Positions 1 to 5,013 of a stretch of DNA of 5,013 nucleotides are shown piece by piece (position 1 is the stretch's first letter; each line of letters starts with the position of its first letter). The stretch is from IMG/VR virus record IMGVR_UViG_2534682088_000014. One strand, 5' to 3'. The position numbers were made by a program, and so were the translations under genes. The DNA comes from a virus (lineage: Duplodnaviria > Heunggongvirae > Uroviricota > Caudoviricetes). The notes beneath the pieces are model-generated. The model was not told where the DNA came from, ran no database searches, and saw nothing but the letters and a program-made list of their open reading frames with translations.

Positions 1-2399
1 AGGACCGACCGTCGGATAAGGTGTGGACCTATAACCGCAGTAATGTGGTGATGCCGGATGATGGTGCGCCGTTCCGCTACAGCTTCAGCGCCCTGAAAGA
101 CCGCCATAATGCTGTTGAGGTGAACTGGATTGACCCGGATAACGGCTGGGAGACGGCGACAGAGCTTGTGGAGGACACGCAGGCCATTGCCCGTTACGGT
201 CGTAACGTCACGAAGATGGATGCCTTTGGCTGTACCAGCCGGGGGCAGGCACACCGCGCCGGGCTGTGGCTGATTAAAACGGAACTGCTGGAGACGCAGA
301 CCGTGGATTTCAGCGTGGGTGCTGAAGGGCTTCGCCATGTACCGGGCGATGTCATTGAAATCTGCGATGATGACTATGCCGGTATCAGCACCGGTGGTCG
401 CGTGCTGGCGGTGAACAGCCAGACCCGGACGCTGACGCTCGACCGTGAAATCACGCTGCCATCCTCCGGTACCACGCTGATAAGCCTGGTTGACGGTCAG
501 GGTAATCCGGTCAGCGTGGAGGTCCAGTCCGTCACCGACGGCGTGAAGGTGAAAGTGAGCCGTGTTCCTGACGGCGTTGCAGAATACAGCGTGTGGGGGC
601 TGAAGCTGCCGACGCTGCGCCAGCGCCTGTTCCGCTGCGTGAGTATCCGTGAGAACGATGACGGCACGTATGCCATCACCGCCGTGCAGCATGTACCGGA
701 GAAAGAAGCCATCGTGGATAACGGGGCGCACTTTGACGGTGACCAGAGCGGCACGGTGAATGGTGTCACGCCGCCAGCAGTGCAGCACCTGACCGCCGAA
801 GTCACTGCAGACAGCGGGGAATATCAGGTGCTGGCGCGATGGGACACACCGAAGGTGGTGAAGGGCGTGAGCTTCCTGCTCCGTCTGACCGTAACAGCGG
901 ACGACGGCAGTGAGCGACTGGTCAGCACGGCCCGGACGACGGAAACCACATACCGCTTCACGCAACTGGCGCTGGGGAACTACAGGCTGACAGTCCGGGC
1001 GGTAAATGCCCGGGGGCAGCAGGGCGATCCGGCGTCGGTATCGTTCCGGATTGCCGCACCGGCAGCACCGTCGAGGATTGAGCTGACGCCGGGCTATTTT
1101 CAGATAACCGCCACGCCGCATCTTGCCGTTTATGACCCGACGGTACAGTTTGAGTTCTGGTTCTCGGAAAAGCGGATTGCGGATATCAGGCAGATTGAAA
1201 CCGCAGCCCGCTATCTTGGCTCGGCGCTGTACTGGATAGCTGCCAGTATCAATATCAAACCGGGCCATGATTATTATTTTTATATCCGCAGTGTGAATAC
1301 TGTTGGCAAATCGGCATTCGTGGAGGCTGTCGGTCGGGCGAGCGATGATGCGGAAGGTTACCTGGATTTTTTCAAAGGAGAAATCGGGAAAACACATCTG
1401 GCCCAGGAGTTGTGGACGCAGATTGATAACGGTCAGCTTGCGCCGGACCTGGCTGAAATCAGGACGTCCATTACGAATGTCAGCAATGAAATCACGCAGA
1501 CCGTCAATAAAAAAATGGAAGACCAGAGTGCGGCAATCCAGCAGATACAGAAAGTTCAGGTTGATACAAATAATAACCTGAACAGCATGTGGGCCGTGAA
1601 ACTGCAGCAGATGAAGGACGGACGCCTTTATATTGCGGGTATCGGTGCCGGTATTGAGAACGCCCCTGACGGCATGCAGAGTCAGGTGCTTCTGGCTGCT
1701 GACCGGATTGCGATGATTAATCCTGCGAATGGCAACACAAAGCCGATGTTTGTTGGTCAGGGCGATCAGATATTCATGAACGACGTGTTCCTGAAACGCC
1801 TGACGGCTCCGACCATTACCAGCGGCGGTAATCCTCCGGCATTTTCCCTGACACCGGACGGGCGGCTGACGGTGAAAAATGCCGATATCAGCGGTAACGT
1901 GAATGCGAACTCCGGGACGCTCAACAACGTCACGATTAACGAGAACTGTCGGGTTCTGGGAAAATTGTCCGCGAACCAGATTGAAGGCGATCTCGTTAAA
2001 ACAGTGGGCAAAGCTTTCCCCCGGGACTCCCGTGCACCGGAGCGGTGGCCATCAGGAACCATTACCGTCAGGGTTTATGACGATCAGCCGTTTGACCGGC
2101 AGATTGTTATTCCGGCGGTGGCATTCAGCGGCGCTAAACATGAGAAAGAGCATACTGATATTTACTCCTCATGCCGTCTGATAGTGCGGAAAAACGGTGC
2201 TGAAATTTATAACCGTACCGCGCTGGATAATACGCTGATTTACAGTGGTGTTATTGATATGCCTGCCGGTCACGGTCACATGACACTGGAGTTTTCGGTG
2301 TCAGCATGGCTGGTAAATAACTGGTATCCCACAGCAAGTATCAGCGATTTGCTGGTTGTGGTGATGAAGAAAGCCACTGCAGGCATCACGATTAGCTGA
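1..2399 (+). CDS. J: Tail-tip host specificity protein J (central and C-terminal part; 5' end lies upstream of the window)
   Basis: Frame 3 is open from the window edge (codons 3..20 = D-R-P-S-D-K, no stop) through the track ORF 21..2399 to TGA at 2397-2399, so the GTG at 21 is not the real start. The translation carries motifs I recognise from lambda gpJ (e.g. [73 protein letters not shown] near the C-terminus). Gene order J-lom-stf matches lambda. Confidence 0.9.
770..1350 (+). other. Two tandem fibronectin type III-like domains within J (approximate boundaries)
   Basis: Two consecutive ~95-aa segments ([11 protein letters not shown]...SVSFRIAAP and [14 protein letters not shown]...[13 protein letters not shown]) each end in a Y-x-[FI]-x-[VI]-R-[AS]-VN motif typical of the FN3 fold. 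Assignment rests on recollection that lambda gpJ contains FN3 domains. Confidence 0.45.
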
Positions 2400-2417
2400 A
2401 TTTTATAACCCAGATAC

Positions 2418-2466: not shown

Positions 2467-3067
2467 ATGCGTAAACTTTATGCCGCCATTTTGTCCGCAG
2501 CCATTTGTCTGGCCGTATCCGGTGCGCCTGCATGGGCGTCTGAACATCAGTCCACGCTGAGCGCGGGGTATCTTCATGCCCGGACGAACGTTCCCGGCAG
2601 TGATGATCTGAACGGGATTAACGTGAAATACCGTTATGAGTTTACGGACGCGCTGGGGCTAATTACGTCCTTCAGTTATGCCAATGCTGAGGATGCGCCA
2701 GATTACCCGTTACAGCGATACCCGCTGGCATGAAGATTCCGTTCGTAACCGCTGGTTCAGCGTGATGGCGGGGCCGTCTGTGCGCGTGAATGAATGGTTC
2801 AGCGCGTATGCGATGGCGGGTGTGGCTTACAGCCGTGTGTCGACTTTCTCCGGGGATTATCTCCGCGTAACTGACAACAAGGGGAAAACGCACGATGTGC
2901 TGACCGGAAGTGATGACGGTCGCCACAGCAACACGTCTCTGGCGTGGGGGGCTGGCGTGCAGTTTAACCCGACCGAATCCGTGACCATTGACCTTGCTTA
3001 TGAAGGTTCCGGTAGTGGCGACTGGCGATCGGATGCATTTATTGTTGGTATCGGATACCGTTTCTGA
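2467..3067 (+). pseudogene. lom: lom-like outer-membrane protein gene (Ail/Lom/OmpX/PagC family), interrupted by a frameshift
   Basis: The frame-1 ORF 2467..2733 encodes a signal peptide (MRKLYAAILSAAICLAVSGAPAWA|SEHQ) and the N-terminal part, matching my recollection of lambda Lom. Homology then continues in frame 2 (track ORF 2678..3067: ...TRYSDTRWHEDSVRNRWFSVMAGPSVRVNEW...GYRF, ending in the aromatic residue typical of OM beta-barrels). The switch lies in the 16 nt at 2683-2698, which is not a multiple of 3; frame 1 stops at 2731-2733. Position directly after J matches lambda. Confidence 0.75.
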
Positions 3068-3171
3068 CAACAGACGCCGATTTATCTTCTGTAAATATTG
3101 TTATGATACGCAGGTTCATCCACCTTATGGGGTGAACTGCGTTTGAGGAAACGTAAAGTTACACTGTCCTG

Positions 3172-3207
3172 AAGCCCGTGGCGTCACTGCTGCGGGCTTT
3201 TTTTATT
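3172..3207 (+). terminator. Rho-independent terminator downstream of lom
   Basis: AAGCCCG (3172-3178) pairs with CGGGCUU (3193-3199), with further inner pairs (UG/GC with GC/UG) closing a hexaloop GUCACU (3183-3188). A run of 7 T (3198-3204) follows. It lies 105 nt after the lom stop and 12 nt before the stf ATG. Confidence 0.6.
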
Positions 3208-3218: not shown

Positions 3219-5013
3219 ATGACAGTAAAAATTTCTGGCGTGCTTAAAGATGGCACAGGAAAACCAGTACAGAACTGCACCATTGTGCTGAAGGCCAGAC
3301 GAACCAGCAGCACGGTGGTGGTGAACACGGTGGCCTCTGAAAATCCGGATGAAGCCGGACGTTACAGCATGGATGTTGAGCATGGTCAGTACAGCGTCAC
3401 CCTGCTGGTTGAAGGTTTTCCGCCTTCACATGCCGGGACCATTACCGTCTATGAAGGTTCCAGACCAGGTACGCTGAATGATTTTCTCGGTGCCATGACG
3501 GAGGATGATGTCCGACCGGAGGCACTGCGCCGCTTTGAGCAGATGGTGGAAGAAGTGTCACGTAACGCCTCCGCGGTTGCACAGAATACGGCAGCCGCGA
3601 AAAAATCAGCCAGCGATGCCAGTGCATCAGCCAGCGAGGCGGTAACTCATGCAACCGATGCTGCAGCCTCAGCACGTGCCGCCAGCACGTCAGCCGGACA
3701 GGCCGCGTCGTCGGCTCAGTCAGCGTCTTCCAGCGCAGGAACGGCATCAACAAAGGCCAGTGAAGCATCGAAAAGTGCTGCTGCTGCAGAGTCCTCAAAA
3801 AGCGCGGCAGCTACCAGTGCCGCTGCGGCGAAAACGTCAGAAACGAATGCGGCAGCGTCACAACAATCAGCAGCCACTTCTGCATCCGCCGCGACCACGA
3901 AGGCGTCAGAAGCAGCCACCTCAGCCCGGGATGCGGCGGCCTCAAAAGAGGCAGCGAAATCATCAGAAACGAACGCATCCTCGAGCGCCAGTAGCGCAGC
4001 TTCCTCGGCAACGGCGGCAGGAAATTCCGCGAAGGCGGCAAAAACGTCAGAGACGAACGCCAGGTCTTCTGAAACGGCAGCGGGACAGAGCGCCTCGGCT
4101 GCGGCAGGCTCAAAAACAGCGGCTGCGTCGTCTGCCAGTGCAGCGTCAACAAGTGCCGGGCAGGCCTCAGCCAGTGCCACCGCCGCCGGAAAATCGGCAG
4201 AAAGCGCCGCATCGTCTGCTTCAACAGCCACAACGAAGGCTGGCGAAGCCACTGAACAGGCCAGCGCAGCAGCGAGGTCTGCTTCCGCAGCGAAGACATC
4301 CGAAACGAACGCGAAAGCGTCGGAAACCAGCGCAGAATCCTCAAAAACGGCTGCCGCATCGTCCGCCAGTTCGGCGGCGTCATCGGCATCATCTGCGTCT
4401 GCTTCAAAAGATGAGGCGACCAGACAGGCGTCAGCAGCGAAGGGTAGCGCCACGACGGCATCCACGAAGGCGACAGAGGCAGCTGGCAGTGCGACGGCAG
4501 CAGCTCAGAGCAAAAGTACGGCGGAATCTGCAGCAACGCGCGCTGAGACAGCGGCAAAACGGGCAGAGGATATTGCATCCGCCGTGGCGCTTGAGGATGC
4601 GAGCACGACGAAAAAGGGGATAGTACAGCTCAGCAGTGCGACTAACAGCACTTCCGAGTCACTGGCGGCAACGCCAAAAGCCGTTAAGGCCGCGTATGAG
4701 CTGGCTAACGGGAAATACACCGCACAGGATGCAACGACAGCACAGAAAGGGATAGTTCAGCTTAGCAACGCGACCAACAGCACATCTGAAATGCTGGCGG
4801 CAACGCCAAAGTCGGTAAAGGCAGCCTATGACCTTGCTAACGGGAAATATACTGCTCAGGACGCTACGACAGCACAAAAAGGAATTGTCCAGCTCAGTAG
4901 TGCAACCAACAGCACATCTGAAATGCTGGCGGCAACGCCAAAGTCGGTAAAGGCAGCCTATGACCTTGCTAACGGGAAATATACTGCTCAGGACGCTACG
5001 ACAGCACAAAAAG
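3219..5013 (+). CDS. stf: Side tail fibre protein Stf (N-terminal ~598 aa; 3' end lies beyond the window)
   Basis: Not in the ORF track because there is no in-window stop. Hand translation of frame 3 from ATG 3219 gives MTVKISGVLKDGTGKPVQNCTIVLKARRTSSTVVVNTVASENPDEAGRYSMDVEHGQYSVTLLVEGFPPSHAGTITVYEGSRPGTLNDFL..., which matches my recollection of the lambda Stf N-terminus. It continues without a stop through a long Ala/Ser/Thr-rich region and the tail-fibre repeat motif KGIVQLSSATNSTSE.LAATPK to 5013. Confidence 0.9.
   Translation, partial: MTVKISGVLKDGTGKPVQNCTIVLKARRTSSTVVVNTVASENPDEAGRYSMDVEHGQYSVTLLVEGFPPSHAGTITVYEGSRPGTLNDFLGAMTEDDVRPEALRRFEQMVEEVSRNASAVAQNTAAAKKSASDASASASEAVTHATDAAASARAASTSAGQAASSAQSASSSAGTASTKASEASKSAAAAESSKSAAATSAAAAKTSETNAAASQQSAATSASAATTKASEAATSARDAAASKEAAKSSETNASSSASSAASSATAAGNSAKAAKTSETNARSSETAAGQSASAAAGSKTAAASSASAASTSAGQASASATAAGKSAESAASSASTATTKAGEATEQASAAARSASAAKTSETNAKASETSAESSKTAAASSASSAASSASSASASKDEATRQASAAKGSATTASTKATEAAGSATAAAQSKSTAESAATRAETAAKRAEDIASAVALEDASTTKKGIVQLSSATNSTSESLAATPKAVKAAYELANGKYTAQDATTAQKGIVQLSNATNSTSEMLAATPKSVKAAYDLANGKYTAQDATTAQKGIVQLSSATNSTSEMLAATPKSVKAAYDLANGKYTAQDATTAQK
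3663..4586 (+). repeat. Degenerate 42-bp (14-codon) periodic array inside stf, about 22 units
   Basis: When the Stf translation is cut every 14 residues from 3663, units align: AASARAASTSAGQA, ASSAQSASSSAGTA, STKASEASKSAAAA, ESSKSAAATSAAAA, KTSETNAAASQQSA, ATSASAATTKASEA ... ASSASAASTSAGQA ... ESSKTAAASSASSA ... STKATEAAGSATAA. Ala is nearly invariant at position 14. The K[TS]SETNA motif recurs at 3831, 3957, 4041 and 4293, with offsets of 126, 84 and 252 nt, all multiples of 42. Confidence 0.7.
4614..5013 (+). repeat. 132-bp (44-codon) in-frame tandem repeats in stf: three full copies plus the start of a fourth
   Basis: Copies start at 4614, 4746 and 4878; a fourth starts at 5010 and is cut by the window. 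Each encodes KGIVQLS[SN]ATNSTSE[SM]LAATPK[AS]VKAAY[ED]LANGKYTAQDATTAQ. Copies 2 and 3 are identical over 109 nt (4773-4881 versus 4905-5013); copy 1 is roughly 80% identical. The motif matches the conserved phage tail fibre repeat that lambda Stf carries once. Confidence 0.9.

Follow-up and report, generated by a model that had tools for sequence, protein, structure and literature searches.

The DNA analysed here (the window, 5013 bases in its full length) covers the distal part of a lambdoid cluster of tail genes, in the order J - lom - stf that is also found in lambda, UTI89 and VT1-Sakai. Its J gene follows that of lambda and then departs from it, which raises the question of which outer membrane receptor the phage would recognise. 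The initial annotation had offered two answers, a receptor other than that of lambda or a different LamB allele specificity. The reading that we consider highly likely is that this is the J gene of a lambdoid prophage, a modular mosaic with a receptor-binding domain (RBD) of the 1A2 type that binds OmpC and not LamB.

Extent and domain content of gene J

The first feature of the window is defined by homology and by a frame that is open from nt 3.

3..2399, + strand: 3' part of gene J (tip attachment / central tail fibre protein)

The J frame encodes 798 amino acids (nt 3-2396) and ends with a stop codon at 2397-2399. Alignment of the frame-3 translation with lambda gpJ (NC_001416, 1132 amino acids) using MAFFT places it against lambda residues 362-1132, the gene being cut by the 5' edge of the window at the equivalent of residue 362. 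The portion present is the 3' two-thirds of the gene. The N-terminal 361 residues lie beyond the window, and J is known here from the equivalent of residue 362 onward. A full-length relative in UTI89 has 1159 amino acids. The 792-amino acid protein first described for this locus, starting at GTG 21, is an artefact: this GTG is internal to the open frame.

The window protein aligns over its whole length with the NCBIfam profile lambda_TipJ (NF049904), amino acids 1-798 corresponding to profile positions 362-1163 of 1163. The score of 1528 bits is below the curated cut-off of 1950 because the N-terminus of J is absent from the window, which holds only these profile positions. Five Pfam domains score far above their cut-offs and occur in the order found in lambda-type J proteins: Phage-tail_3 (PF13550), Ig_J (PF24421, amino acids 249-353), Ig_J_second (PF24489, amino acids 355-457), Phage_Tail_Tip (PF09327, amino acids 511-639) and Ig_GpJ_C (PF12421, amino acids 668-798, 128 bits). 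A search of the PDB with the window J finds lambda gpJ (8iyk, E=0). Judged from its 97% identity to the hub and FNIII domains of 8iyk, the window J would build a trimeric tail tip and the central fibre in a siphovirus particle.

Lambda gpJ (P03749; PDB 8iyk, 8xcj, 8xck) binds LamB. It has the same gene position, domain order and RBD fold family (PF12421) as the window J. It differs in its shaft, which is 28 residues shorter and 19% identical, in its RBD, which is 44% identical, and in the use of LamB rather than the OmpC predicted here.

Identity profile of J against lambda gpJ

The domains of gpJ have been described in the order HD-FNIII-AHS-CSF-RBD, together with the mechanism by which the protein is triggered (PMC11101478). 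When the window is mapped to this scheme, the two stretches that diverge from lambda are the alpha-helical shaft (AHS) and the RBD, and the conserved island between them is the central straight fibre (CSF).

3..1376, + strand: hub / FNIII (C-terminal hub domains, FNIII-1 and FNIII-2), amino acids 1-458; lambda identity 446/458 (97%)
1377..1592, + strand: alpha-helical shaft, amino acids 459-530; lambda identity 13/70 (19%), net +28 residues
1593..1913, + strand: central straight fibre (beta-prism), amino acids 531-637; lambda identity 80/107 (75%)
1914..2396, + strand: receptor-binding domain (RBD, Ig-like), amino acids 638-798; lambda identity 71/161 (44%)

The profile of J against lambda gpJ was computed in 30-residue blocks. 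Blocks up to window amino acid 450 (nt ~1352) are 93-100% identical to lambda, with a single block at 83%. Over amino acids 451-540 the values are 47%, 13% and 40%, and there is a net insertion of 28 residues relative to lambda 820-843. Identity is again 80-93% over amino acids 571-630 (the conserved 30-residue stretch), and from amino acid ~631 to the C-terminus the blocks are 67%, 50%, 43%, 40%, 30% and 42% identical. At the DNA level, blastn aligns lambda only with window positions 1-1416 (94.9%) and 1586-1949 (76%), and no lambda alignment is obtained over 1417-1585 or 1950-2400. Within the fibre, DNA identity to lambda rises to 85% over 1801-1900.

The profile bears out most of the initial annotation. 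This had placed J close to lambda up to ~1377 with similarity returning after ~1590 and decaying from ~1940, and it had described the last ~110 amino acids as mostly different, which agrees with the 30-43% identity of the final RBD blocks. Its boundaries (1378, ~1590, ~1940 and 2399) are right to within a few bases. The block at 1378-1590 had been considered unrelated to the lambda segment; the divergence is real (13/70 identities, no blastn alignment), but the block is a longer allele of the same shaft element. Uniformly high identity to lambda through the C-terminus was looked for and is absent. The close similarity to gpJ residues ~970-1132 that characterises a lambda-type LamB-binding RBD is likewise lacking, with 71 of 161 RBD residues identical and no DNA alignment over 1950-2400.

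The receptor-binding domain is of the 1A2 type

The RBD protein is identical at all 161 of 161 residues to that of the VT1-Sakai J and is 100% identical to those of the O157 PPompW prophages. Its identity is 97% to UTI89, 61% to A8 (PDB 9wca), 44% to lambda and 42% to phage 434. Pairwise RBD identities separate at least four classes, listed here with their identity to the window and their receptor.

1A2 / VT1-Sakai / UTI89: 97-100%; OmpC
A8 / ev017 / BP-4795: 61-66%; OmpC (shown for A8)
Phage 434 / WGPS6 / phi330: 42%; OmpC (PMC12502783)
Lambda: 44%; LamB

A8 and 1A2 are chimeric gpJ proteins constructed by Brödel et al. (Nature 2024, PMC11338833); in the latter the 1A2 gpJ RBD was grafted onto lambda at residue 964. 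The sequence of GpJ 1A2 is given in the supplement to that study (Brödel et al. 2024, PMC11338833) as recoded DNA in a PDF, which was read by machine with dropped bases, and the window was compared with it by a frameshift-tolerant dynamic-programming alignment. Over window amino acids 631-798 there are identities at 155 of the 160 readable codons, a further 12 codons being unreadable. One of the five mismatches is an impossible internal stop, and all five look like misreads of the PDF. The identity of the window RBD to 1A2 is at least 97% and probably 100%, although exactness is unproven. At the five RBD positions that separate UTI89 from the window (HEKEHTD, AGHGH, ITIS), 1A2 has the window residues. 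By its sequence, the window RBD is of the 1A2 type.

A search of the PDB with the C-terminal region gives as best match the A8 structures (9wca/9wcb, "A8 gpJ 713", E=1e-119), followed by lambda gpJ713 (8xcj, E=2e-98); both span the whole region. A8 is the best-scoring solved structure, uses OmpC and has a 17-residue C-terminal motif in common with the window. The RBDs of A8, ev017 and BP-4795 differ from that of the window by two indels at 61-66% identity, and A8 takes the OmpC of K-12 whereas 1A2 does not.

The 1A2 RBD occurs in nature as the J allele of VT1-Sakai (Sp15), of the PPompW prophages of O157 and of many Stx2a phages. Among phage records, 14 have an RBD at least 99% identical to that of the window, and in 55/258 the identity is at least 90%. 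In a collection of complete E. coli genomes, 994 records carry the RBD DNA at 99% identity or higher, and another 1280 at 95% or higher. The 1A2/VT1-Sakai RBD is among the commonest J alleles in E. coli.

OmpC as the predicted receptor

The recipients used with the chimeras were MG1655 cells deleted for lamB and ompC, with ompC alleles supplied on a plasmid (PMC11338833; bioRxiv 10.1101/2025.02.28.640725). The 1A2 chimera delivers DNA via OmpC in lamB-deleted cells (PMC11338833; bioRxiv 10.1101/2025.02.28.640725). It accepts the OmpC of EDL933 and of other strains and rejects that of K-12, while A8 accepts both K-12 and EDL933 OmpC (PMC11338833). Efficient delivery by A8, 1A2 or both was obtained with 21 of 23 natural OmpC variants (PMC11338833). 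The central tail fibre of phage 434, WGPS6 and phi330 also binds OmpC (PMC12502783). These are lambdoid J proteins that use OmpC like the class of the window but belong to a distinct RBD class (42%), therefore OmpC binding is found in at least three RBD classes.

From these data the RBD of the window J is predicted to bind the trimeric porin OmpC, not LamB, and to accept EDL933-type and many natural OmpC alleles but not that of K-12. The demonstration of OmpC use concerns the 1A2 chimera, in which the graft sits on the short shaft and the fibre of lambda; the native window J has a long shaft and a fibre 75% identical to that of lambda.

It could be argued that the divergent RBD still binds LamB and is adapted to another LamB allele, such as the one carried by its natural host. 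The RBD is indeed homologous to the LamB-binding domain of lambda (Ig_GpJ_C family, 44%), and LamB alleles are known to affect lambda binding, the A384S change turning reversible into irreversible binding (PMC11101478). However, delivery by the matching 1A2 RBD into MG1655 deleted for lamB and ompC depended on the ompC allele on the plasmid (PMC11338833), and adsorption of the 1A2 chimera is reported to be lost on deletion of ompC and normal on deletion of lamB. The sister type A8 and the 434 type use OmpC as well. We regard binding to another LamB allele as extremely improbable. Of the two answers in the initial annotation the different receptor is supported, given a 1A2-type RBD that is OmpC-dependent in lamB-deleted cells, and the LamB allele is not.

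A second alternative is that the RBD targets some other outer membrane protein (OmpF, FhuA, BtuB or another) and that its resemblance to 1A2 is incidental. The J-like RBDs of siphophages target many receptors, and small changes in lambda J add the use of OmpF (PMC11101478). Against this, the RBD agrees with 1A2 at essentially every residue, which goes beyond a loose family resemblance, and a receptor of this kind is scarcely more probable than a LamB allele. OmpC remains the preferred receptor.

By homology to the open and closed structures of lambda gpJ (PMC11101478), the three RBDs would move apart on inserting their loops into the porin trimer. The beta-prism would then twist and the helical shaft flip and partly refold, as proposed from the same homology to lambda gpJ. 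After this, again by analogy with lambda gpJ, the FNIII arms may detach and the tail tip may open for ejection of DNA.

In practical terms, the central tail fibre of the window prophage is assigned to the OmpC-using 1A2/VT1-Sakai class, an assignment of little import beyond annotation. For prophages of this kind the last ~165 residues of J can serve for predicting host range, and the 1A2/VT1-Sakai RBD class is already employed where engineered DNA is delivered to E. coli in the gut.

J is a modular mosaic

Lambdoid J genes swap their receptor-binding ends at conserved linker stretches. J had been described as mosaic in the initial annotation, and this is correct. The hub/FNIII module (amino acids 1-458) is 97% identical to lambda and 73% identical to VT1-Sakai at the protein level. 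Over nt 1-1100 the DNA matches lambda at 93-99% and the ompW-integrated UTI89 prophage at 100%. The VT1-Sakai J is merely 63-81% identical here, upstream of nt ~1100, where the window is lambda/UTI89-like. Over nt ~1100-2400 the window is 97-100% identical to the VT1-Sakai J in each 100-nt block, with a dip to 89-93% over 1601-1800, and UTI89 is patchy at 90-100%. PhiR68_2 follows the window through the shaft and fibre, and its alignment is lost in the RBD.

The mosaic at window positions 700-2399 recurs in three complete E. coli genomes (99.6% identity) and, at 98%, in O104:H4 among others. For the whole window, the best match in complete E. coli genomes is no better than 97.7%.

This DNA profile is the classic one of homologous exchange, and the gene very probably arose as a modular mosaic by recombination between co-circulating, co-resident lambdoid prophages whose crossovers fall in conserved stretches. 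Its parts are a lambda-type hub/FNIII module, a long shaft allele, a moderately conserved beta-prism fibre and an RBD of the 1A2 / VT1-Sakai / PPompW type. The conserved 30-residue stretch of the fibre is a linker for recombination and grafting. Mosaicism of lambdoid J genes, exchange near lambda residue 964, this RBD allele and its receptor are all documented already. The window J is a well-known and very common allele, and it represents ordinary lambdoid mosaicism.

A long allele of the alpha-helical shaft

The block at 1377-1592 is a divergent, long allele of the alpha-helical shaft, with 28 more residues (four heptads) than lambda 820-863. Its amino acid sequence is 96-99% identical to the J proteins of VT1-Sakai, UTI89 and PhiR68_2. 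Amino acids 482-539 are without proline or glycine, and hydrophobic residues occur at a spacing of 3-4. A single-sequence AlphaFold2 model of the C-terminal 359 amino acids has one continuous helix at amino acids 481-530. This is weak evidence, as the block-mean pLDDT reaches ~70 only in the middle of the helix and is below 50 at its end. With a mean pLDDT of 37 overall, the model was used for the helix call only and offers no structural check of the RBD. If the helix is continuous, the fibre would gain roughly 4 nm from the longer shaft, a value obtained by arithmetic (28 x 0.15 nm) and not by measurement.

The long shaft is also found in phage 21, cdtI, the PPompW prophages and most Stx phages, and the length of the lambda_TipJ profile (1163) fits the long-shaft form. 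Among the 261 phage records matching the shaft region, sampled at even spacing, the long form (306-nt match) accounts for ~60% and the short form of lambda (222-nt match) for about one third. Most lambdoid J genes have the long shaft, and lambda has the short form.

RBDs of the 434 type occur with long shafts (ev243, cdtI) and with short shafts (2B8, Stx2c phages), and RBDs of the 1A2 type are combined with long shafts of two different sequence types. The shaft and RBD modules therefore reassort. Both shaft lengths are common and each is associated with more than one RBD class. We speculate that the long/short dimorphism, reassorting independently of RBD type, need not be neutral and may be a functional tuning element, which would determine either how far the fibre reaches through O-antigen or capsule, or how readily receptor binding triggers the flip of the shaft. 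This idea is a long shot, and the dimorphism is the only loose thread of possible biological interest at this locus.

State of this copy and the neighbouring genes

Downstream of J the following features were identified.

2467..3067, + strand: lom (Ail/Lom outer membrane protein gene), split into two overlapping ORFs (2467..2733 and 2678..3067) by an apparent frameshift near nt 2696-2710
3171..3200, + strand: terminator-like hairpin with a T run after it, in the lom-stf interval; consensus scan, a pattern match only
3219..5013, + strand: 5' part of the side tail fibre gene stf, open from ATG 3219 and leaving the window at its 3' end

Compared with the lom genes of UTI89 and VT1-Sakai, lom of the window has one extra base within a cluster of seven substitutions, and the Pfam family Ail_Lom matches the second ORF (2678..3067). 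The frameshift was searched for in complete E. coli genomes and is present in none, the best match being 96.4% identical.

The frameshifted lom bears on the possibility that the window J is a dead remnant in a decaying prophage, in which case its mosaic C-terminus would record past recombination and bind nothing now. The closest match to window 700-2399 (99.6%) lies in a prophage remnant of E. coli FDAARGOS_1248, where it is annotated as a pseudogene of J, truncated at its 5' end about 100 nt upstream of the window, and adjoins a partial terminase gene. In VT1-Sakai, too, this J is interrupted by a mutation. The 798 window codons are nevertheless fully open, the RBD protein is identical to many other copies, and the homologous prophage of UTI89 has an intact J of 1159 amino acids with a full set of tail genes. 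A dead copy is unlikely, though it deserves far more weight than either alternative receptor. A decayed prophage setting is compatible with the RBD type in any case and bears only on the use of this copy; the assignment to the OmpC-binding 1A2 type is unaffected.

Open reading frames on the minus strand and in other frames inside J and stf are unsupported and were dismissed as by-products of composition, and an Rfam scan of the window gave no match. The hairpin at 3171..3200 has a stem of 13 pairs, including seven G-C pairs, followed by TTTTTATT. The product of stf contains a phage_tail_N domain at amino acids 1-134 and three copies of Phage_fiber_2. At its 3' end in the window, stf has three fibre repeat units of 132 nt (44 amino acids) at 4612-5013, as detected by Tandem Repeats Finder (period 132, 3.0 copies).

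J genes in defective prophages

The nearest relative of positions 700-2399 of the window is the J gene of E. coli FDAARGOS_1248 (NZ_CP069542.1, our locus L009, 2283-5198), which matches at 99.6%. The 5' end of this J gene is truncated and adjoins a partial gene for the terminase small subunit; the FDAARGOS_1248 locus is a prophage remnant. Its truncation point would map some 100 nt before the window begins, and the window may itself come from a remnant of this kind.

In the J gene of the phage VT1-Sakai, the 3' half matches most of window 1100-2400 at 97-100% identity. The annotation splits this gene into two CDS, with the remark 'truncated by a mutation' (AP000400.1, our locus L002, 250-3722). 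The widespread allele of the receptor-binding domain (RBD) that is common to the window and VT1-Sakai often resides in defective prophages.

Length forms of the J shaft

The alpha-helical shaft of J, encoded at window 1377-1592, occurs in two forms, which differ by 28 residues. The long form is found in about 60% of an evenly spaced sample of the 261 phage records matching the shaft region, including phage 21, cdtI and most Stx phages. The short form is found in lambda, HK630, 2B8 and Stx2c phages. Lambda, the reference, represents the minority form. Across the phage records compared, shaft length reassorts independently of RBD class.

The lom and stf genes

Downstream of J the window contains the following features:

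2467-3067, + strand, lom, as two overlapping ORFs (2467..2733 and 2678..3067) with the break near 2696-2710
3171-3200, between lom and stf, terminator-like hairpin, strong, with a 13-pair stem and then a T run (consensus match only)
3219-5013, + strand, stf, side tail fibre gene, with ATG at 3219, a phage_tail_N domain and continuation past the window end
4612-5013, + strand, three copies of the Phage_fiber_2 repeat in stf, each of 132 nt (44 aa)

Relative to the lom genes of UTI89, VT1-Sakai and FDAARGOS_1248, the break consists of one additional base within a tight cluster of seven substitutions. Among complete E. coli genomes the best match to the window lom is at 96.4%, with none higher. 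Either the window lom is a private pseudogene, or the break comes from a sequencing error.

The stf gene includes a long low-complexity stretch rich in Ala and Ser, and its composition gives rise to spurious ORFs. We rejected as wrong-frame artefacts a 324-aa ORF rich in Arg, Pro and Gln (3649..4623), as well as the long minus-strand ORFs within stf.

The UTI89 ompW prophage

Among complete E. coli genomes, the prophage most similar to the window as a whole, at 97.7%, is one of UTI89 (NC_007946.1, our locus L003, 4920-14672). It is integrated at ompW and holds an ompW fragment at its right end. This prophage and the 'PPompW' prophages of O157, which have the RBD in common with the window, are the same kind of element.

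UTI89 was a recipient of DNA delivered with gpJ 1A2 by Brödel et al. (PMC11338833). The strain's own ompW prophage encodes a 97%-identical RBD.
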